From Acidimicrobiales bacterium (GTDB taxonomy: Bacteria > Actinomycetota > Acidimicrobiia > Acidimicrobiales > Aldehydirespiratoraceae), in contig JAQWMR010000013.1 in assembly GCA_029246685.1 (NCBI GenBank), forward strand, positions 192,181-256,180: 64,000 bases of DNA, in the 5' to 3' direction. Positions within the stretch are counted from its first letter, which is position 1; each line of letters opens with the position of its first letter. The position numbers and the translations under genes are program-made. Positions 29,695 through 40,399 of this stretch are shown piece by piece. A model generated the notes under the pieces. The model was not told the DNA's origin and searched no databases. It saw nothing but the letters and a program-made list of their open reading frames with translations.

Positions 29695-32532
29695 TTAAGA
29701 AGGCTGGGGGGTGCCGAGGTGATACATCGGAGCGGCGGGCTTCAGGGGGCGGGCGTACCAGAGCGGGCGGCGCAGGCCGCCGGGGCCGGGGGCGGGGCGC
29801 GTCTTGCTCAACCAGTCCAGGTAGGCCTCGCGGGACTTTGCTGTGTCGACGACGACATCGCCGTACTGATCGCCGCCCTCCGCGGGCGTGACCGTCACGC
29901 GTTGGTGCCAGCACTGCATGCCGGAGATGGGGTCTGGCTGCACGGAGAACGTCAGGTTCTGATGCACGCCGGTGTCGTTCCACCAGATGCGGTTCGAGTC
30001 CGGATCATCCGAGACGAACTTCCGAATGCCGTCGGTACGGCTGAGCTTCCAGGTGCCGTCGGACTGCTTGTCGATGGTGGCCTTGCCGGTACCCCATGAC
30101 CGCGCCTTGTCTTCTTCGATGCGCCAGCGGCCCATGTGGTGCGACGCGGCGACGACGCCGGGGCGAATTCCCTCCGTGCGCCATGCCTGGATGACGAAGT
30201 GGCCGATGCGAGTCGAGATGCGGACGAGTCCGTTCTCTTCGATCCCGAGCACCTCGGCGTCGCTCGGATGAATCCACAGCGGGTGTCGGTGGCTGATCTC
30301 GTTGAGCCACTTGGAGTTGGCCGAGCGCGTATGGATCAGCGTCGGAATCCGGAAGGTCGGGAGCAGGATGCGCTCCCCCGCTTCCATGTCCAGGTCCTCG
30401 TGATGCACGTGCGACGGGATCCAGGTGGGGGCCGCGTACTCCGGCCAACCCCAGTCCTTCAGCGTGGTCGAGAAGAGCTCCAGCTTCTTCGACGGCGTCG
30501 GGAAGCCCTCCTTGATCTCACCGTCGATCTCGACAGCAGGTGAGCCCTCGCCGAGGTCAGCCAGCGCGATCTCGTCGAGTCCCTCGGCCGTGCCGTCCCA
30601 GGTGGCGATCGTGCCGGGCTTTCGGAAGACACCGTCGTCGCCCTTTACACAATCGGTGACCTCGTCGGGCAAAACGATGCGTTCGTATGGCGTAATCATG
30701 TCGCCCGGCACGGCATACGATCCGACGTCGCGCATGAACTCGAGCGGGGTCTTGCCCGCCGCCGCGGCGTCCTCGGCGAGGCCGGGGACGGACTCGGCGA
30801 ACATCGTGCCGTAGTACTCGTCGACCGTGATCGGCGTGCCAGGTCGCTCGTCGGACTCGAACCATTGACGGATTCCTCGGGACCCGTCGGGGTCGATGTG
30901 CCATGAGAGGTCGATCCAGAACTCGTTCTCTTCCCACACCTCACCCGGATTGAACTCGTGGGTTCGGGTCTCGTGGTCGAGCTCCGCTCCGCGGATCTCG
31001 GCATAGCGCCGCATGACGGGCTGGCGGAAGCCGATCCAGCGGCCGTTGTGCGTCTCGAAGCTGGCGATGTCGTGACGCTCGGTGCCGATGCCCATCGGGA
31101 GCACGTAGTCCGCGAACCAGGATGTCTCCGACCAGGTCGGCGTGAGGGCGACGTGGCACTTCACCTTCGACTCGTCGGTGAGCGCCTCCATCCACGAGAA
31201 GCCGTCCGGGTTCGTCCAGATCGGGTTGTAGACGCGGCTGAAGTAGACGTCGAGCGTGCCCCGTCCCTCGTTCAGGAAGTGCGGCAGGAGGATCGACATC
31301 TCGTGGTACGAGAGCGGGAACTCCTTCGGCCACGAGAGCTCGTTCCACTCGTTGAGCGCCGGCGCTCCCTTGGGCTGAGCCGGCTTGAACTTGTTCCATC
31401 CGTTGCCGCTCGTTCCGCCGACCGTGGCCACAGAGCCGGTCAGGACGTTCAGGAAGAACAGGCAGCGGGCGGTCTGCCAGCCGCCGAGGTTGCCGGCACC
31501 GGCGGCACGCCAGTTGTGGGATGCGAACTTGGTCGGGTGCGCGCCGATGATCCCGGCGATCTCCCGCAGTTGGTCACCGTCCACGCCGCTGATCTCCTCC
31601 GCGGCGTCGACGGTGTACTCGGCGTAGGCGTCGAGCAGGGCCTGTTCGACGGACTCGAACTCGACCGGAAGGTCGGGCCGGGTCTCCTGGAGATACGTCT
31701 CCCAGTTGGTCCAGCGGCGGACGAAGTCCTTCTCCCATGTGCCGTTCTCGATCAGGAGGCGAGCGATTGCGAGCAGCATGAACGGCTCGGTGCCCGGCCA
31801 CGCCGGCAGCCAGTGGTCGGCTTTCGAGCCCGTGTTCGAGAGACGTGGGTCGACGCAGATGACCGTCGCACCCTTCTGCTGCGCTTCGATGATCCGCTGC
31901 GCGTGCGGGTTGAAGTAGTGGCCGGACTCGAGGTGCGACGAGATGAGGAAGACCACTTCGGCGTTCGCGAAGTCGGACGACGGCCGATCGTGGCCCATCC
32001 AGCTCTGGTAGCCGATCCGGGCGTTGGACGAGCAGATGTTGGTGTGGCTGTTGTGGCCGTCGACGCCCCAGGACTTGAGCACCCGGTCGGCGTAGCCGTC
32101 CTCGCCGGGACGACCGACGTGGTACATGATCCCGTCGCGACGGTCTTCGTCCATCGCGGTGGCGATGCGGTTGCCGATGTCGGTGAGAGCTTCCTCCCAG
32201 GAGACGCGTTCCCACTGGCCGGAGCCGCGCTCACCGACCCGCTTCATCGGGTGGAGCACTCGCTCGGTGTCGTTGACCTGGTTGAGAGTGGCCGGGCCCT
32301 TCGCGCAGTTGCGACCGCGCGACGCGGGGTGCAGCGGGTTGCCCTCGATCTTGTCGATCTCGCCGGTCTCGTGGTTGACGTGGGCGAGAAGGCCACACGC
32401 GGCTTCGCAGTTGAAGCAGGTCGTGGGCACCAACGAGTGGTGCTCTTCGACCTTGTCGGGCCACGCCTTGGCGTTGAGCGACGTGACGTCGTGCCAGTCC
32501 TCGTGGGGTGGGTACTGCTGTAGATCGGTCAT
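29695..32532 (-). CDS. Molybdopterin (bis-MGD) oxidoreductase catalytic subunit, no Tat signal
   Basis: 945 aa. N-terminal FS0 motif CFNCEAACGLL...GRNCAKG, a candidate Cys Mo-ligand segment GHNSHTNICSSNAR, and MopB-like sequence throughout. The N-terminus MTDLQQYPPHEDW lacks a twin-arginine motif. Confidence 0.9.
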   Translation of the reverse strand: MTDLQQYPPHEDWHDVTSLNAKAWPDKVEEHHSLVPTTCFNCEAACGLLAHVNHETGEIDKIEGNPLHPASRGRNCAKGPATLNQVNDTERVLHPMKRVGERGSGQWERVSWEEALTDIGNRIATAMDEDRRDGIMYHVGRPGEDGYADRVLKSWGVDGHNSHTNICSSNARIGYQSWMGHDRPSSDFANAEVVFLISSHLESGHYFNPHAQRIIEAQQKGATVICVDPRLSNTGSKADHWLPAWPGTEPFMLLAIARLLIENGTWEKDFVRRWTNWETYLQETRPDLPVEFESVEQALLDAYAEYTVDAAEEISGVDGDQLREIAGIIGAHPTKFASHNWRAAGAGNLGGWQTARCLFFLNVLTGSVATVGGTSGNGWNKFKPAQPKGAPALNEWNELSWPKEFPLSYHEMSILLPHFLNEGRGTLDVYFSRVYNPIWTNPDGFSWMEALTDESKVKCHVALTPTWSETSWFADYVLPMGIGTERHDIASFETHNGRWIGFRQPVMRRYAEIRGAELDHETRTHEFNPGEVWEENEFWIDLSWHIDPDGSRGIRQWFESDERPGTPITVDEYYGTMFAESVPGLAEDAAAAGKTPLEFMRDVGSYAVPGDMITPYERIVLPDEVTDCVKGDDGVFRKPGTIATWDGTAEGLDEIALADLGEGSPAVEIDGEIKEGFPTPSKKLELFSTTLKDWGWPEYAAPTWIPSHVHHEDLDMEAGERILLPTFRIPTLIHTRSANSKWLNEISHRHPLWIHPSDAEVLGIEENGLVRISTRIGHFVIQAWRTEGIRPGVVAASHHMGRWRIEEDKARSWGTGKATIDKQSDGTWKLSRTDGIRKFVSDDPDSNRIWWNDTGVHQNLTFSVQPDPISGMQCWHQRVTVTPAEGGDQYGDVVVDTAKSREAYLDWLSKTRPAPGPGGLRRPLWYARPLKPAAPMYHLGTPQPS

Positions 32533-32540
32533 CGGCGTTC

Positions 32541-34142
32541 CTAGGAGAGCGGCACGGACTGGCCGGCACGGACGAAGGCGTCTTCATAGGCCCACATACC
32601 GGCGAGCGCCGCGACACCCGCGGCCGCCGGGAGTGCCGGGCCCGTGTCGGCGGCGATCGAAATGGTCAGGATGGCGCCCGGCGTGAGCAGCCCGACGAGC
32701 ATGCCGAACCAGAACCGGTCCTTGTACTTGCCTCTGATCATGTGATGGAGCGCAGCCTCGACATGGGGTGTGCCCTTCGATGTCGCCTCGATCGAGACGA
32801 TCGTCGCGGTGGCGATGGCGCCCGCGAGGAATGTCCAGCGCACCGCATCGACCTCGGGGACAACCATGAAGAGGTCGATGATCGAGTACGTCGCGCCGCC
32901 GGCGGTGACCGCCTGCGCAAGCAACGTCGGGAGCAGCAGCGGCGTCCGCCAGAGGTCACGACCCTCACACTGGCCGAAGAGGAACGCCGTGTAGCCGGCA
33001 GTTGCGGCGGCGAGGATCGCCGTGGGGATTGCGGCCGCCTCGATGATGCCGGGGGAATCCTTGAGGCCTCCCACCCACCAGGCGGCGAGCGCCACGGCGA
33101 ATCCGGCGAGGATGTACGCGCCGCGGACGAGCCACGACTCCCAGCTCCCGCGGGTGATGAGGTAGTGGAAGCGACCCGGCTGCTTTAGGTCGGCCACGAG
33201 CAGCACACCGGTGAGGCCGAGGAATGCACCGGCGACCATCGGTGGGACCACGCCGACGGCGGCCTGTTCGGCGCTGTGGCCCATGAGGACGAGAAGCGCG
33301 GCCACCAACATCACGCCGGCGGCGATCGCCTTGGTGACGAGATAGCCCGACACCTTCTCCTTCCAGGTCATCTGGTGAGAGGTTGTGTAGGCAGTGCGAG
33401 CGACGACGCCGTGACTGTCGGGCGGGACGGTGGGGTGCGCGGGCGTGGTGTCGGCCCAGATCATGCCGTCTTTCGCGATCGCGGTCCGTAGAGGATTGAG
33501 CGATGCCTGATCCGCGCCTCGGTAGTAGACCTTCGGGTTCGTCCCCTGCTCGGGAGCCCGAACGGCTACCGGCTCGCGAGCGATGATGCTGGTGGCGAGG
33601 TTCAGTGGATCGTCGAGATCCGCAACTTTGATCGCATGGGTCGGGCAGACGACGACGCACGAGGGCTCGAGATTCTGTTCGATCCGGTGGTTGCAGAAGT
33701 TGCACTTCTGGGCGGTGTTCGTCGCGGGGTTGATGTACAGCGCGTCGTACGGGCACGCGTTCATGCAGCCTTTGCAGCCGATGCAATTGTCGTCGTTGAA
33801 GTCGACGACACCATTCTCCGCCCGGTACAGCGCGTTCGTCGGGCAGATCGACATGCACGGTGCGTCGTCACACTGGTTGCAACGCATCACCGAGAAGTGA
33901 CGGCTGACGTTCGGGAACGAACCACTCTCGATGTACTTCACCCAGGTGCGGTTCACACCCAGCGGCACGTCGTGTTCGCTCTTGCACGCGACGGTGCACG
34001 CGTGACAGCCGATGCAGGAGTCGCTGTCGAGAAGGAAGCCGAGTCTGGTCACCAAAGGCCTATCGGTCACGCCGGAGCGAAATGTACGGACAAATGAGTG
34101 TAGCCATTGGCTACGTAGCGCGACCGTTAGAGGTCGTGACAA
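32541..34142 (-). CDS. Fusion of 4Fe-4S ferredoxin-type (NrfC/PsrB-like) subunit and NrfD/PsrC-like membrane anchor
   Basis: N-terminal half has four Cys clusters (CIGCHACTVACK, CNQCDDAPCMSICP, CIGCKGCMNACP, CNFCNHR...CVVVCP). C-terminal half has about 8 predicted TM helices. The TTG 34142 start is doubtful, and GTG 34070 (VTDRPLVTRLGFLLD) is more plausible. Confidence 0.85.
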   Translation of the reverse strand: MSRPLTVALRSQWLHSFVRTFRSGVTDRPLVTRLGFLLDSDSCIGCHACTVACKSEHDVPLGVNRTWVKYIESGSFPNVSRHFSVMRCNQCDDAPCMSICPTNALYRAENGVVDFNDDNCIGCKGCMNACPYDALYINPATNTAQKCNFCNHRIEQNLEPSCVVVCPTHAIKVADLDDPLNLATSIIAREPVAVRAPEQGTNPKVYYRGADQASLNPLRTAIAKDGMIWADTTPAHPTVPPDSHGVVARTAYTTSHQMTWKEKVSGYLVTKAIAAGVMLVAALLVLMGHSAEQAAVGVVPPMVAGAFLGLTGVLLVADLKQPGRFHYLITRGSWESWLVRGAYILAGFAVALAAWWVGGLKDSPGIIEAAAIPTAILAAATAGYTAFLFGQCEGRDLWRTPLLLPTLLAQAVTAGGATYSIIDLFMVVPEVDAVRWTFLAGAIATATIVSIEATSKGTPHVEAALHHMIRGKYKDRFWFGMLVGLLTPGAILTISIAADTGPALPAAAGVAALAGMWAYEDAFVRAGQSVPLS

Positions 34143-34199: not shown

Positions 34200-35021
34200 A
34201 TGCCGAGCCCCCGTCCGAACCCTTGGGACGCTGCGTTCTTAGCCGTGTCGCTCGCCCGCTACGACCTGGCAGAACTCATCGAACCCGACCGGCATTTCGC
34301 ATGGCTCGATGACCTCGCCACCCTGGGAGTCACCGTGACCGAAGGCGTCCCGAGGGACCGCTCGGGGTTGACGGCGGTGGCGGATCTGATCGGGATCATG
34401 GAATCCAACAACTATGGGATCGACTGGGACATCGTCTCCACTGCCGACCCGTTCAACCAGGTCGACTCTGACCTGCCCCTCCGGGTGCACTCGGACCTTC
34501 CCTACCGACGACTGCCGCCGGGATTCCAGGTGCTGCTGGCCGCTGAGGCCTCAGCCGAGGGTGGCGAGACGCTGTTGGTCGATGGCTACCGGCTGTCGGC
34601 ACGAATTCAGGAGGATGATCCGGATGCCTGGGCGACGCTGACGACGGTGGACCGCGCGTTCAGCTACATCCGGCCGGAGCAGCGCTACATCGGCGGCGGC
34701 CCGATCGTCGGGTTGGACGCAGAGGGCGCGCCCGACGTCATTCGCCATGCGCCGGACCTCGTGCTCCCCGTCCGAGACGGAGACGGTGCCGCCGCCGATC
34801 GCGCGCTCGAGATCTTCGTGTCCACGGCTGCCTCCGCTGAGCTCGAGTTCCGCATCCGGCTCGAACCCGGCCAGGCGCTGACCGTCAACAACCATCGGGT
34901 TCTCCACGGACGTGGTCCGGTGGACCTGGGCACTGGTGAGCGCCGCCTCCTCGGGTGCTATATCGGATCGGACGAGTTCGCGTCCGCTCGACGAGTACTC
35001 GAGCGAGACCTCGGCTCGTGA
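34200..35021 (+). CDS. TauD/TfdA-superfamily Fe(II)/2OG dioxygenase, gamma-butyrobetaine-hydroxylase-like (PhnY*/TmpA-like candidate)
   Basis: HSDLPY (HxD), PPGFQVLLAAEASAEGGETLLVDG, NNHRVLHGR and RLLGCYI. This is a catalytic domain only (273 aa). Confidence 0.8.
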   Translation: MPSPRPNPWDAAFLAVSLARYDLAELIEPDRHFAWLDDLATLGVTVTEGVPRDRSGLTAVADLIGIMESNNYGIDWDIVSTADPFNQVDSDLPLRVHSDLPYRRLPPGFQVLLAAEASAEGGETLLVDGYRLSARIQEDDPDAWATLTTVDRAFSYIRPEQRYIGGGPIVGLDAEGAPDVIRHAPDLVLPVRDGDGAAADRALEIFVSTAASAELEFRIRLEPGQALTVNNHRVLHGRGPVDLGTGERRLLGCYIGSDEFASARRVLERDLGS

Positions 35022-35085
35022 TGGCGGTGGCGTCCTCGATCTGAGATCGTGTGTCGCTCCACCCGGAAACGAAGCGAGAACCCTG

Positions 35086-36213
35086 ATGCCCGGCTTGCGT
35101 CCCGACGTCGATCCCGACGGCCTGCTCGAATACTCCGTCGTCTACACCGACCGCGCGCTCAACCACATGAGCCAGACGTTTCAGCAGGTCATGCGCAATG
35201 TGAGCGGCACTCTCACCGAGGTCTACAACGCGTCGACCGCCACGATCGTCCCTGGCAGCGGCACCTTCGGGATGGAGGCGGTGGCCCGGCAGTTCGCCGC
35301 GGACCAGCACTGCCTCGTCATCCGCAACGGGTTCTTCTCGTTCCGGTGGTCCCAGATCTTCGACACCGGTTCGATTCCGGCCTCCCACACCGTGATTAAG
35401 GCTCGCCGCGCGACGGACGGGGCCACGGAGCCGTTCGCACCGGCACCCATCGCCGAAGTGGTCGCCACCATCCAAGCCGAGAAGCCGGCAGTCGTGTTCG
35501 CCCCTCATGTGGAGACTGCGTCGGGAATGATCCTGCCGGACGACTACCTGCGGTCGGTCGCCGAGGCGACACACGCGGTCGGCGGACTCTTCGTCCTGGA
35601 CTGCATCGCCTCCGGAACGATCTGGGTCGACATGGCCGACATCGGCGTCGACGTTCTCGTCAGTGCGCCGCAAAAGGGCTGGTCAGGGACACCCTTCGGC
35701 GGGCTGATCATGCTCAGCGAGGCGGCCGATGCTCGCCTCGCGGAGACGCAGAGCTCGAGCTTCGCCTGCGATCTCGGCAAGTGGCGTTCGATCATGGCGG
35801 CCTACGAGGGCGGCGGTCACGCCTACCACGCCACCATGCCCACCGATGCGATCACGAGCTTCAGCTCGGTGATGGACGAGACCCGCGAACTCGGGTTCGA
35901 TCGGCTCAAGCAGGCCCAACAGGACCTTGGTGACCGCGTCCGTACCCTGTTAGCGGATCGAGGCATCACATCGGTCGCCGCCGATGGTTTCGGAGCCCCG
36001 GGAGTCGTCGTCTCCTATACGGGGGACCCGGATGTCAAGAACGGCAGCAAGTTCGCCGCGCAAGGGGTCCAGATCGCCGGCGGAGTGCCCCTGATGTGCG
36101 ACGAGGGCGACGACTTCTCGACCTTCCGTCTCGGACTCTTCGGCCTCGACAAGCTGTCAGACGTCGACGCCGCGGTCAGTCGCCTCGCCGCTGCCCTCGA
36201 TCATCTGAGCTAG
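35086..36213 (+). CDS. Class V (AGXT/PhnW-like) pyridoxal-phosphate aminotransferase
   Basis: ORF trimmed to ATG 35086. PGSGTFGMEA, FVLDCIAS and SAPQKGW (PLP Lys). Confidence 0.85.
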   Translation: MPGLRPDVDPDGLLEYSVVYTDRALNHMSQTFQQVMRNVSGTLTEVYNASTATIVPGSGTFGMEAVARQFAADQHCLVIRNGFFSFRWSQIFDTGSIPASHTVIKARRATDGATEPFAPAPIAEVVATIQAEKPAVVFAPHVETASGMILPDDYLRSVAEATHAVGGLFVLDCIASGTIWVDMADIGVDVLVSAPQKGWSGTPFGGLIMLSEAADARLAETQSSSFACDLGKWRSIMAAYEGGGHAYHATMPTDAITSFSSVMDETRELGFDRLKQAQQDLGDRVRTLLADRGITSVAADGFGAPGVVVSYTGDPDVKNGSKFAAQGVQIAGGVPLMCDEGDDFSTFRLGLFGLDKLSDVDAAVSRLAAALDHLS

Positions 36214-36760
36214 GTCATCGCTCGTCCGGACGTCCCCGATGCTGCGGTACACCGTGCAGAGCGTGGCGTTGAGATCGAGGTCTCGGCGCGCGGCGTTGGC
36301 GTCCGCAACCATGATGGTCCTGTACCCCAGGGTCGCAGCGTCTCGAGCAGTGGCCTCGCAGCAGACGTTGGCAACAGTGCCGACTTCTTGCAGACGATGT
36401 CGTCGGCCTCGACCGCCAGGCTAGGCGAGATGCGGGCCCGCGAAGGGCCATCGCCGCCAGACTGTCGGTAGAGCTCCGCGAACGAGGCGCCGAGGAAGTC
36501 GACACGTGCGGGATCGGCGGCGCGTCCGTCGGCACGACCCAGGCAATGACCCCGCCGGCCGCCCGAAGGGTTCCGGCGATCCAGTTGATCGTCGGCACGA
36601 TTCCCGATGCGTACGGATTCTCGTCCACGAAGGACGGCACCATGTCCACGACGACGAGCGCGGTCCGTGTCGCCTCGAGCTGGGCGAACGCGTGCCGACG
36701 TCCCCTTTGGCGTTCGTGCCGTTCGTACTCCCGGTCGTCGATGTGCCAGGTGTGTTTCAC
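36157..36760 (-). pseudogene. Isochorismatase-family hydrolase pseudogene (frameshift plus internal deletion)
   Basis: Family-like sequence is split over three frames. They read ALVVVDMVPSFVDENPY...WVVPTDAPP, then ADPARVDFLGASFAELYRQSGGDGP...EADDIVCKKS, then GTVANVCCEATARDAATLGYRTIMVADANA. About 25 residues expected between KKS and GTVAN are absent. The C-terminal 95 aa of track ORF 36215..36760 are Arg/Ser-rich out-of-frame sequence. Confidence 0.7.
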
Positions 36761-36770
36761 CGGCCGGTCT

Positions 36771-37085
36771 TCAGAGGATCTCGAGGACGCGCTCGGCCGG
36801 GCGTCCGATCACGGCTTTGCCGTTGAGGACGGCAATGGGGCGTTGCATGTCGGCCGGATTGTCGACGAGGTGGGCGACGACTGCTTCGGCGCTCGTCTCG
36901 TCGAGGCTGGCTCGCACCATCTCGGCCGGGTCGCCGCCGACCAAGGCGACGAGGTCGTTGAGCGCGGCCGCGTCCAACGGATTCTCGATGTAGTTGTGGA
37001 TCGTGTAGTCCACGCCACGTTCGTCAAGCAGGGCGACCGCCCCGCGAGCTTTGCTTCAATTGGCGTTGTAGTAGAGCGTCAGCAT
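36771..37085 (-). CDS. arsC: ArsC-family (glutaredoxin-type) arsenate reductase with in-frame TGA at the catalytic Cys position: candidate selenoprotein, alternatively a nonsense pseudogene
   Basis: Minus strand from ATG 37085 reads MLTLYYNAN-TGA(37056-37058)-SKARGAVALLDERGVDYTIHNYIENPLD...MQRPIAVLNGKAVIGRPAERVLEIL. It is colinear with ArsC, with no other lesion and a SECIS-like hairpin downstream. Confidence 0.55.
37028..37045 (-). other. SECIS-like hairpin downstream of the in-frame TGA
   Basis: Minus strand reads GCGGGGC-GGTC-GCCCTGC: a 7-bp stem (one G-U pair) with a GGUC tetraloop. The loop starts 18 nt after the TGA. Confidence 0.45.
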
Positions 37086-37105
37086 CGCCTGATCATGGCA
37101 TGCCG

Positions 37106-37699
37106 CTATCGCTGAACGGTGCCGATCGCGTCGAGGGCACCGGGCCGGCTGAACACCTCATCGAGCAACGGCTGGAACGCCTCGATCGGAAGCGTGTCGT
37201 AGCTCGGGTCAAAACAGTTCTGATCGAACTCGGCGCAGAACCTGACGCAGTCGTCGTAGAAGGGCGAATCCGAGTACCGCTCCCTCGCATCGCGGGCGCC
37301 ACCGTTGTGATGGAAGTAGTAGTAGCCCTGGAACAGACCGTGGTGCCGAACCACCCACTCCGTCCGCTCATCGACGTACGGCTTGAGAATCGTCGCGGCG
37401 GCCTGGCTGTGGTTCACGGGTGCGAAGACGTCGCCGATGTCGTGCAGGAGGGCGCCGACGATCATGTCGACCGACTCGTCCGCCCGTAGCGCGCGGCTCG
37501 CGGACTGGAGGGAGTGCTCGTAGCGATCGACCTGGTAGCCGAGCGTCGGGCCCTGCAGGACGCGCAGCATTGCGAGGAGATTCTCCACGAGGACACCGAG
37601 GGTGTGCTCCGAGAACTCTTCGCCGAGGAACTCGTAGTCCTCCTTGGTGCCGTCCTCCATGCTCGTCCACGTCACGGTGCGTTCCGGTGCCGAAGCCAT
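37106..37699 (-). CDS. HD-domain protein with H...HD...H...H...D ligand pattern (PhnZ/TmpB/MIOX-like diiron oxygenase candidate)
   Basis: 197 aa. YEHSLQSA, ALLHDIGD, NHSQ, VVRHHG and EFDQNCFDPSY. The extra His residues beyond the minimal HD phosphohydrolase set are visible. Confidence 0.75.
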   Translation of the reverse strand: MASAPERTVTWTSMEDGTKEDYEFLGEEFSEHTLGVLVENLLAMLRVLQGPTLGYQVDRYEHSLQSASRALRADESVDMIVGALLHDIGDVFAPVNHSQAAATILKPYVDERTEWVVRHHGLFQGYYYFHHNGGARDARERYSDSPFYDDCVRFCAEFDQNCFDPSYDTLPIEAFQPLLDEVFSRPGALDAIGTVQR

Positions 37700-38327: not shown

Positions 38328-39155
38328 TCAGGTGGGGAAATCGACGTCGGTGGTGACGTGCTCCCACGCGTCGATCGATGTCGACATCGCTTCGAGCTTC
38401 TCGCGGGTCGCGGCGAGAACGTCCTTGCCCATCAGCAGACGTAGAGGTGGATCGTCCATGCCGGCAAGCAGCACTGCGGCCTCGCCGATCTTGCGGGGAT
38501 CGCCGGGCAGGTGTTCGGCGAACTGCCTGATCATGTCCTTGCGCCCCTGAACGTCCTCGTACTCCGCGATCGCGCTGCTGCTCTCGGCCATCGAGCGCGA
38601 CGCCCAGTCGGTCCGGAAGGCGCCCGGCTCGATCGAGGAGACTTTGATGCCGAACGGCTCGACTTCCTTCGCCAGGCCTTCACCGAGTGCCTCCAGCGCG
38701 AACTTCGTGCAGCTGTAGAAGACGTTGGGCGGGTTCGCGACGAGTCCGGTCATCGACGAGATGTTGATGACGTGGCCGCTCCCCTGCTGTCGCATCACCG
38801 GGAGGACGAGTCGCAGTGTGTCGACGATGCCGAAGAAGTTCGTGTCGAAGAGCTTGCGAATCTCATCGTCTTCGCCCTCCTCTACTGCCGACATGTAGCC
38901 GTATCCGGCGTTGTTGACGAGGACGTCGATGCCGCCGAACTCGTCGATCGTTCGTTGCACCGCGTCGACGATCTGGCCTTCGTTGGTGACGTCCAGCTCG
39001 ACCGCGCGGGCAGTGGCGGGGTATTCGCTGACGACATCATCGAGCGTCTCGGGGCGTCGAGCCGTCGCAACGACCTGGTGCCCGGCCTCGAGCGCGGCTG
39101 TCGCGATCTCGCGGCCAATGCCTGTCGAGCATCCGGTTATCAACCATCGCGCCAT
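38328..39155 (-). CDS. Short-chain dehydrogenase/reductase (SDR)
   Basis: ITGCSTGIGRE cofactor motif, NNAG, and YSCTK (YxxxK). Confidence 0.9.
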   Translation of the reverse strand: MARWLITGCSTGIGREIATAALEAGHQVVATARRPETLDDVVSEYPATARAVELDVTNEGQIVDAVQRTIDEFGGIDVLVNNAGYGYMSAVEEGEDDEIRKLFDTNFFGIVDTLRLVLPVMRQQGSGHVINISSMTGLVANPPNVFYSCTKFALEALGEGLAKEVEPFGIKVSSIEPGAFRTDWASRSMAESSSAIAEYEDVQGRKDMIRQFAEHLPGDPRKIGEAAVLLAGMDDPPLRLLMGKDVLAATREKLEAMSTSIDAWEHVTTDVDFPT

Positions 39156-40399
39156 CAGAGCGCGACCTCAGGAAGACGGCGCAGATAGCCGGATCGTCGC
39201 TCGGCCAACTCTGCGGCCCGGCCCGCGCCGTCGACCCGCGGCGCGTCGGGCAGTGCGGCGTCCAGGTCGTCGAGCTTGACCACTCGCCCGTTCGCCGCGA
39301 GATCCTCGCGCGCTCCGCCCTCGGGGAATTCGGCCATCCGCAGGGTGAGATGCCCATCGGGCACGCCGCAGGTGTCGATCCAGTTGTGGAGCCCCGGGTC
39401 TTCTCCCGCGATCACGAAGGTGTAGGTGCCGTCCTCGTTCGGCATTGCCTGCGCCTTGTTAACGCTCGCGGGACGGTCGACGATGTCGAGCGTGGTCCCC
39501 CACATGGTGGCGATCGGGACGGTGAAGTACTCCGCCCCGCCGTCACTCACATCGACGACGAATGCCTCGTCGGGGGCCAACTCGTAGCGACCGCCCACAT
39601 AGACCTGGTGACGCAGGCCACCGGTGTGATCGGCCGACCAGGCGAGCGCGAATTCGTTCGGCGTGCGCTTCATCGTCCCGTAGGAGAGCCTTCCGGTGAA
39701 GTCGGCGTAGTGCTCCATGAACTGCACCGTGAGCGCCGCTTGCTCATCGACCGTGCGAGCCGGCGACGCCGGTTCGTCGCCGAGCCGTACGATCTCGTAG
39801 AGGTTCGGGTCGTCGACGCCCCAGTCCAGCATCACGTCGCGGATGTAGAACTCGTGCGCCGTCGGGCCGGATTGCACATGGTTCGGCCGGCCGTTCGCCG
39901 GATCAGCATCGACCGTGACGACGAAGCTGCCATCATCGCTGAGCTCCATCGTCCGCCCGTTCAGGACGTCGACCGTCCCCATGTTCTCGTCCCAGAGCGT
40001 CAGGTAGTTCTCCGTCATCCGGTTGGCGCCGACTCGCCCCCGGATCTCGTAGCGCTCGTCACCGGAGATCGGTATGACCCGGTAGATGGAGTCCGGGTTG
40101 TCGATGCCCCACCGAGAGCCGGGAATCCGGCGGCCGTCGACTTCGTGCTCGAGCCGAGTGATGCAGGTGACCTTCGGGCGCAACGGATCCTGGTTGGACG
40201 ACCAGATCGCGGCCGAGAACATGACTTCCTCGAACGCCCAATCGAAGCAGGCCCGCATTGACTCGGAGGGCTGGGCCCGGTCGAGCCATGCGGCGCCCAC
40301 GTCGGCGTAGGCCTGCTTCACCAACGGATGGTCGATGATCTCGATCGCGGCGAGTTCATGCTCGTGCTGCATCGCGGTGGCGACGGGATGATCGGCCAT
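39155..40399 (-). CDS. Conserved hypothetical protein (possibly DUF1214-like)
   Basis: 414 aa. ATG is preceded by GGAGGA, and there is an ATGA overlap with the SDR gene. The family assignment is only a guess. Confidence 0.5.
   Translation of the reverse strand: MADHPVATAMQHEHELAAIEIIDHPLVKQAYADVGAAWLDRAQPSESMRACFDWAFEEVMFSAAIWSSNQDPLRPKVTCITRLEHEVDGRRIPGSRWGIDNPDSIYRVIPISGDERYEIRGRVGANRMTENYLTLWDENMGTVDVLNGRTMELSDDGSFVVTVDADPANGRPNHVQSGPTAHEFYIRDVMLDWGVDDPNLYEIVRLGDEPASPARTVDEQAALTVQFMEHYADFTGRLSYGTMKRTPNEFALAWSADHTGGLRHQVYVGGRYELAPDEAFVVDVSDGGAEYFTVPIATMWGTTLDIVDRPASVNKAQAMPNEDGTYTFVIAGEDPGLHNWIDTCGVPDGHLTLRMAEFPEGGAREDLAANGRVVKLDDLDAALPDAPRVDGAGRAAELAERRSGYLRRLPEVAL

Follow-up and report, generated by a model that had tools for sequence, protein, structure and literature searches.

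The window analysed here is a stretch of 64,000 nucleotides from an Acidimicrobiales bacterium (NCBI GenBank assembly GCA_029246685.1, contig JAQWMR010000013.1, positions 192,181 to 256,180), and the subject of this work is an ArsC-family gene on its minus strand (36771..37085) in which an in-frame TGA codon occupies the position of the catalytic cysteine. The mechanical list of open reading frames (ORFs) for the window held just an 80-codon ORF with a GTG start (36771..37013), which is the 3' part of this gene. When read from the ATG at 37083..37085 the frame comprises 104 codons, i.e. 103 standard residues plus a proposed selenocysteine (Sec) at position 10, with a single internal stop, the TGA at 37056..37058, and it is closed by a second TGA at 36771..36773. 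The translation reads MLTLYYNAN up to the internal TGA, resumes with SKARGAVALLDERGVDYTIHNY and ends in GRPAERVLEIL; in a fuller reading of the same minus-strand frame, the portion following MLTLYYNAN and the TGA begins with SKARGAVALLDERGVDYTIHNYIENPLD and ends with QRPIAVLNGKAVIGRPAERVLEIL. In the relatives the frame starts as M[LI]TLY[YH]N at the position of the ATG proposed here, and the extent of the complete gene is further backed by orthologues of the same architecture. The original prediction had described a frame open to ATG 37085 save for one TGA at 37056-37058, with which the sequence agrees, and had proposed a candidate Sec enzyme with the TGA at the catalytic cysteine of ArsC. Conservation of the TGA, the existence of Cys pairs, a conserved hairpin and constraint on the coding sequence all support this proposal, and we consider it probable, at about 0.88, that this is a selenoprotein gene in which UGA codon 10 is decoded as Sec.

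The assignment to the ArsC family was made with codon 10 set to cysteine, in which form the translation matches Pfam ArsC PF03960 (E = 3.5e-8, 34.1 bits, above the gathering cut-off of 24); a search of PDB sequences returned 3RDW, 3F0I and the R773 ArsC as top matches, with a best E of 2.7e-14. In the phmmer alignment to R773 ArsC (PDB 1JZW/1I9D) codon 10 falls on Cys12, which places the TGA on the nucleophile as had been proposed, while R82 (36840..36842, minus strand, within QRPIA) corresponds to Arg94 and R95 (36801..36803, minus strand, within GRPAE) to Arg107. The third arginine of the triad, R58 (36912..36914, minus strand), corresponds to Arg60 of R773, the arginine that is invariant in the family, as seen both in the family alignment and when the protein is aligned with 3RDW, 3F0I or 2MU0. 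All three residues are invariant across 22 aligned sequences, and the triad which the original prediction had recognised is indeed kept. Its further claim of colinearity with R773 ArsC stands for the nucleophile and the arginine positions but not for the whole length, since about 11 residues are missing directly after R58. A model of residues 11-104 made with AlphaFold2 (AF2; predicted local distance difference test, pLDDT, 79) gave template-modelling (TM) scores of 0.70-0.73 to 3RDW, 3F0I and 1I9D, and structures of the ArsC, YfgD, Spx and YffB types are all among its matches.

Closest in both sequence and structure are the YfgD-type members of the ArsC family, 3RDW of Yersinia pestis and 3F0I of Vibrio cholerae, each labelled 'putative arsenate reductase', which have in common with the window protein the active-site motif N-x-x-[C/U]-S-K-x-R and the arginine triad. 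The YfgD-type proteins carry Cys and are of approximately 115-120 residues, whereas the window protein has a Sec codon and 104 residues. Both are structural-genomics entries for which, to our knowledge, the physiological substrate is not established. The glutaredoxin-coupled R773 ArsC has the same fold, with the equivalents of Cys12, Arg60, Arg94 and Arg107 all present in the window protein, but it is only about 25% identical, counts 141 residues with a C-terminal extension, is part of an ars operon and has Cys as its nucleophile. The motif at the active site of the window protein is U-S-K-A; identity as a regulator of the Spx/MgsR type was considered and rejected, as there is no second Cys (UxxA, not CxxC) and the score against TIGR01617 (Spx/MgsR) is 38.6 bits for a cut-off of 75.

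A protein search over 5.8 billion proteins identified 24 matches to the window protein. Sixteen of these (P0001-P0015 and P0017; 69-99% identical) are N-terminally truncated to 58-87 amino acids (aa) with start sites which vary, because the conserved in-frame stop misleads gene callers, and this is the mis-annotation by standard pipelines that had been anticipated. Full-length matches (115-120 aa, with Cys) were found solely at 48% identity or less. At the DNA level a set of 16 distinct relatives, composed of 15 short-form genes and one of a long-form sister clade, was read upstream in the respective contigs, and the TGA was present in 16 out of 16, at amino-acid identities down to about 69% within the short form and about 48% in the sister clade. 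The peptides that precede the TGA are open, in frame and variable (MLTLYYNAN, MLTLYHNQN, MLTLYYNQN, MITLYYNEN and MLTLYYNPD, with HLTLYFNPG in the sister clade), and the length of the short-form clade is 104-105 residues. The carriers include four metagenome-assembled genomes, namely Acidimicrobiales GCA_033344915.1 (where the contig measures 4.48 Mb), Acidimicrobiales SFB_27D, Acidimicrobiia Co_bin.99 and one bin of Ca. Aldehydirespiratoraceae, together with many marine metagenome assemblies in ENA, JGI and Logan. The window allele itself recurs unchanged in nine more contigs, no two of them from one sample, and is therefore not the rare strain-specific variant which had been considered at the outset.

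Cysteine is found at the codon-10 column, as CSKAR or CSKSR, in homologues at 62% identity or less, and the N-A-N-stop-S-K-A-R of the window aligns with N-P-R-C-S-K-[AS]-R in P0016, P0018-22, L021-32 and P0265. The last of these, identified when 1.84 billion cluster representatives were searched exhaustively with HMMER, is a full-length short-form Cys homologue of 107 aa at 62% identity (motif CSKSR), and it reads CSKSRGAAALL in the region of the hairpin, where the Sec clade is invariant. The alignment of homologues which had been suggested as a check thus returned Cys/Sec pairs and a hairpin that is paired throughout. Across nine distinct sequences there are zero amino-acid changes at codons 11-27, compared to 25% of pairwise codon comparisons which differ at the amino-acid level at codons 30-104; synonymous differences amount to 0.20-0.28 at codons 11-29 versus 0.42 at codons 30-104. 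This substitution pattern after the TGA fits an overlapping RNA constraint on the coding sequence. The comparisons indicate that the sequence before the TGA and that after it are both under purifying selection, and no second lesion follows it in the frame, as the original prediction had stated.

A hairpin resembling a bacterial selenocysteine insertion sequence (SECIS) is located at 37028..37045 on the minus strand, with pairing that is conserved. Its stem of 7 base pairs (bp) is formed by a 5' arm GCGGGGC (37045-37039) and a 3' arm GCCCUGC (37034-37028) which enclose the loop GGUC (37038-37035). The stem begins 10 nucleotides (nt) past the UGA, and the UGA-to-loop spacing is 17 nt; for bacterial SECIS elements a range of 16-37 nt has been given (PMC10778597). 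The loop also has the G that is expected of a bacterial SECIS. All 77 of the 77 pair cells in 11 distinct sequences are standard pairs, with one stem pair changed in a compensatory manner from G-C to A-U in two sequences and G-U intermediates in other sequences, and all of these changes are at synonymous sites. In the long-form sister clade (48% identity) the core GGGGC-GGUC-GCCCU is kept at the same offset. In the Cys homologues L021 and L023 the peptide SKARGAVA is likewise encoded, but by other codons, and no hairpin is present there.

Comparison with the SECIS of Escherichia coli fdhF, read from the E. coli genome, showed that its apical loop is likewise GGUC; this loop spans +22 to +25 in fdhF and +21 to +24 in the window gene. 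The G and the U of the fdhF loop are the contacts of SelB. Both hairpins are within the coding region just past the UGA and have comparable folding energy; they differ in that the window stem is a continuous 7-bp G+C-rich helix without the long lower stem, and its recognition by SelB is putative.

Several observations weigh against the assignment of Sec. Covariation in the hairpin is thin, with a single pair changed on both sides in two sequences, and the observed score was attained in 55 of 500 shuffles of the columns. The stability of the hairpin relative to shuffles, with a z of about -1.1 to -1.5, is unexceptional alone, although the genuine E. coli fdhF SECIS is at the same z level in this shuffle test; as the thermodynamics are not significant alone, weight was placed on conservation. 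More telling than covariation or stability are the spacing of 17 nt, the loop identical to that of fdhF and the missing hairpin in the Cys homologues L021 and L023. The window stem is also without a bulged U of the kind found in the fdhF element. Rfam was searched at the gathering threshold for the whole window and at E <= 10 for the region, in both cases without a match; few bacterial SECIS elements are covered by Rfam, so that this outcome is to be expected. Finally, selA, selB, selD and tRNA-Sec were not found in the 64-kb window or in approximately 0.4 Mb of the relatives' loci: the sole match of tblastn with E. coli SelA, SelB, SelD and FdhF to the window and these loci was a Sec-less molybdoenzyme, and ARAGORN detected no tRNA in either. 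A database query with the SelA of E. coli gave Enterobacteria matches only, and one with a high-GC Global Ocean Sampling (GOS) read of SelD gave Gemmatimonadetes-like fragments, none of them on carrier contigs. Within the same class, Acidimicrobiia, selA, selB, selC and selD have been reported in all 84 complete Actinomarina genomes (2026 preprint).

The use of TGA elsewhere in the window was also analysed. TGA ends 18 of the 28 long ORFs with a high G+C content at third codon positions (GC3) and is the commonest stop; since it ends this gene and most long ORFs, any recoding would be local and a genome-wide reassignment is excluded. A GC3-based scan of the window for in-frame TGAs as a mark of a second selenoprotein gave nothing else convincing. 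The only other TGA which an open frame contains together with a following GGTY-loop hairpin of 5 bp or more, at 40399 on the plus strand, lies in an Arg/Pro-rich frame that looks non-coding and was rejected as a chance match.

Three other explanations of the internal TGA were weighed. The gene could be a pseudogene in which a recent TGC/TGT-to-TGA nonsense mutation has struck an ordinary Cys-ArsC gene, an alternative already raised in the original prediction; the adjacent isochorismatase-like gene is in fact decayed by two frameshifts, and annotation pipelines do take the TGA as a stop. Set against this are the presence of the TGA in 16 of 16 relatives down to 48% identity and in several Acidimicrobiia families, including cases where the isochorismatase gene is intact, the lack of a second lesion with purifying selection on either side of the TGA, the conserved hairpin, and the recurrence of the identical allele in nine more contigs from as many samples. 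The probability left to a nonsense mutation is minimal and we regard this explanation as effectively refuted. Alternatively, the TGA could be a true stop which closes a nine-codon leader peptide, MLTLYYNAN, followed by a regulatory hairpin, with a product that starts downstream and is devoid of the catalytic residue. A short upstream ORF with a hairpin just past its stop does resemble leader arrangements, and in the window a GTG is available at 37013, but no downstream start is conserved; this GTG is GTC in most relatives, and gene callers use at least four different starts, which give products of 58, 64, 73, 81 and 87 aa. Furthermore the stretch between the TGA and any later start is in frame, invariant in amino acids and homologous to beta1-alpha1-beta2 of ArsC (CSKARGAVA...). 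In the AF2 model helix 1 and strand 2 depend on residues 11-30, and a thioredoxin fold without beta1, alpha1 and nucleophile would be non-functional, all of which makes a leader peptide very unlikely.

The remaining explanation is that the UGA is read through with an amino acid other than Sec, be it by near-cognate Trp or Cys or by another context-dependent suppression, the hairpin merely slowing termination. In other systems, read-through is known to be stimulated by hairpins downstream of the stop, and the failure to find the Sec machinery in the window or the relatives' loci would agree with such a scenario. Against it stand the position of the codon, precisely that of the redox nucleophile, at which Sec and Cys as a rule replace one another, and the loop of the SelB type, GGUC, at a spacing of the SelB type; Trp at codon 10 would kill catalysis, the ArsC-like family is already recognised as a selenoprotein family, and the Sec machinery does exist in the class Acidimicrobiia. 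Non-Sec read-through is for these reasons improbable, and insertion of Sec at codon 10 is the explanation we prefer.

The statement in the original prediction that ArsC-like selenoproteins had been predicted from marine metagenomes is correct. The family 'Arsenate reductase, UxxS' was predicted as a new selenoprotein family from the Sargasso Sea on the basis of 14 sequences, with a figure of the SECIS (Zhang, Fomenko and Gladyshev 2005, PMC1088965); in the GOS data 77 Sec sequences were counted versus 784 Cys homologues in this ArsC family (Zhang and Gladyshev 2008, PMC2398784), and a 2026 review lists the ArsC selenoprotein family under TIGR00014/UxxS. The window gene shares with the UxxS family the PF03960 domain, the UGA at the catalytic Cys column, the downstream SECIS hairpin and the marine origin. 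It differs in having U-S-K-A where UxxS calls for a Ser, although this Ser is not strict, because some GOS members (UGHA) and Cys homologues (CSKA) carry Ala. The clade of the window gene also differs as a short form of 104-105 residues that has lost 11 residues past the first catalytic Arg, and while most GOS members look low-GC the window lineage is high-GC Acidimicrobiia. No USKAR sequence is present in the GOS supplement. The GOS read JCVI_READ_1093011991209 (NPGUGHARGAVALL...) shares 48% identity with the window protein and belongs to the long-form sister clade (L048 and L049, which are contigs of P0023), whose proteins are of about 115 aa with the motif U-G-H-A, have no deletion, carry the TGA and are truncated in databases to 61-87 aa. 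The window gene represents a separate short-form subclade, from Acidimicrobiia, within a selenoprotein family that had been predicted before.

The principle is hence unchanged, as ArsC-like selenoproteins have been predicted since 2005; what is added is a high-GC marine Acidimicrobiales lineage among the apparent users of selenocysteine. The public copies of the short-form gene that were examined in NCBI, JGI and ENA are uniformly mis-annotated, either as fragments of 58-87 residues or as a truncated 'ArsC/Spx/MgsR family protein', and for marine Acidimicrobiia an annotation rule can be given as N-x-N-TGA-AGC-AAR followed by the hairpin GCGGGGC-GGUC-GCCCUGC. Since the short-form subfamily comprises natural Sec and Cys members, the latter represented by P0265, such a pair could serve to test the benefit of Sec in an active site of the ArsC type.

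From the sequence comparisons we infer SelB-dependent decoding, incorporation of selenium, and the nature of the substrate and the reductant of the window protein. In the proposed mechanism, SelB, loaded with GTP and Sec-tRNA(Sec), would bind the mRNA hairpin 10 nt past the UGA as the ribosome nears the UGA, and would deliver Sec in place of termination, so that translation would run on to the UGA stop at 36773-36771. The product would be a thioredoxin-fold protein of the ArsC/YfgD family, 104 residues in length, with selenocysteine as the active-site nucleophile, and its selenolate would be placed at the N-terminus of helix alpha-1, beside the triad of Arg58, Arg82 and Arg95. The protein most likely works like ArsC: the selenolate would attack an oxyanion substrate, for which arsenate is the best guess by homology, and the adduct would then be resolved by a small thiol together with a partner of the glutaredoxin or mycoredoxin type.

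The label of arsenate reductase given in the original prediction is less secure than that of selenoprotein. Membership of the ArsC family and the ArsC fold were borne out, and the best-scoring NCBIfam model is TIGR00014 arsC. Three observations nonetheless speak against the specific function: the score of 74.6 bits against TIGR00014 is below the equivalog cut-off of 106.05, the loss of about 11 residues right after R58 is clade-specific, and no arsB, ACR3 or arsR is present within approximately 10 kb in the relatives of the window. Arsenate as the physiological substrate is thus a possibility to which we would give somewhat less than even odds.

The neighbours of the gene encode an HD-domain protein, an isochorismatase-like protein, a class V aminotransferase, a TauD-family dioxygenase and an iron-sulphur (Fe-S)/NrfD protein with a molybdoenzyme, and they do not form an ars operon. 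The TauD-family dioxygenase, of the iron/2-oxoglutarate (Fe/2OG) type (34200-35021, plus strand), is closest to TmpA (PDB 6NPB, E = 2e-30), while the class V aminotransferase (34912-36213, plus strand) is weakly PhnW-like. The HD-domain gene (37106-37699, minus strand) ends 17-20 nt upstream of the Sec gene in most relatives, and the only PDB matches of its product are PhnZ and TmpB, both weak (E about 5e-3). PhnZ and TmpB are diiron oxygenases which cleave C-P bonds. The NCBIfam scores of the dioxygenase, the aminotransferase and the HD-domain protein are all far below the family cut-offs; the gene neighbourhood resembles a cluster for oxidative phosphonate catabolism and hints at such a pathway. 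One could speculate that the short-form Sec protein is not part of classical arsenic resistance and instead works with its cluster, either reducing arsenate or another oxyanion which enters or is set free in the course of scavenging phosphonates or organo-arsenicals, or acting as a dedicated reductant of the oxygenase; we consider such a role unlikely. If it were true, the 11-residue deletion beside Arg58 would mark an altered specificity for substrate or partner.

Directly downstream of the Sec gene lies the isochorismatase-like hydrolase pseudogene (about 36193-36760, minus strand), with homology split across three reading frames, as the original prediction had recognised of this neighbour. 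It shows two frameshifts with respect to the intact 219-aa orthologue of L002, and near-identical metagenome contigs are also without a full gene call; the gene is intact in relatives which carry the same TGA. Upstream of the Sec gene a conserved motif TGnCAnnnT (37092..37100, minus strand) ends 6 nt before the ATG. It is found at the same offset in 13 of 13 distinct upstream regions with flanks that vary (among them L001, L002, L005, L019, L024-26, L041, L043-45 and L047), and it may be the extended -10 element of a leaderless transcript. A scan of the region upstream of the Sec gene for the sigma-70 consensus called nothing.

Two further observations were made in the window. A 945-aa molybdopterin oxidoreductase (29695-32532, minus strand) is encoded beside a 533-aa fused 4Fe-4S/NrfD-like membrane protein (32541-34142, minus strand); the best NCBIfam models for this pair are PhsA, DmsA, ArrA, TtrB and NrfC, all with scores far below the cut-offs, and the pair is kept in L001-L003, L025 and L026 with no in-frame TGA. 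At 39155-40399 on the minus strand there is a 414-aa ORF without a Pfam or NCBIfam match, and a gene of similar size and likewise without a family is found in the same place in L001 and L006.

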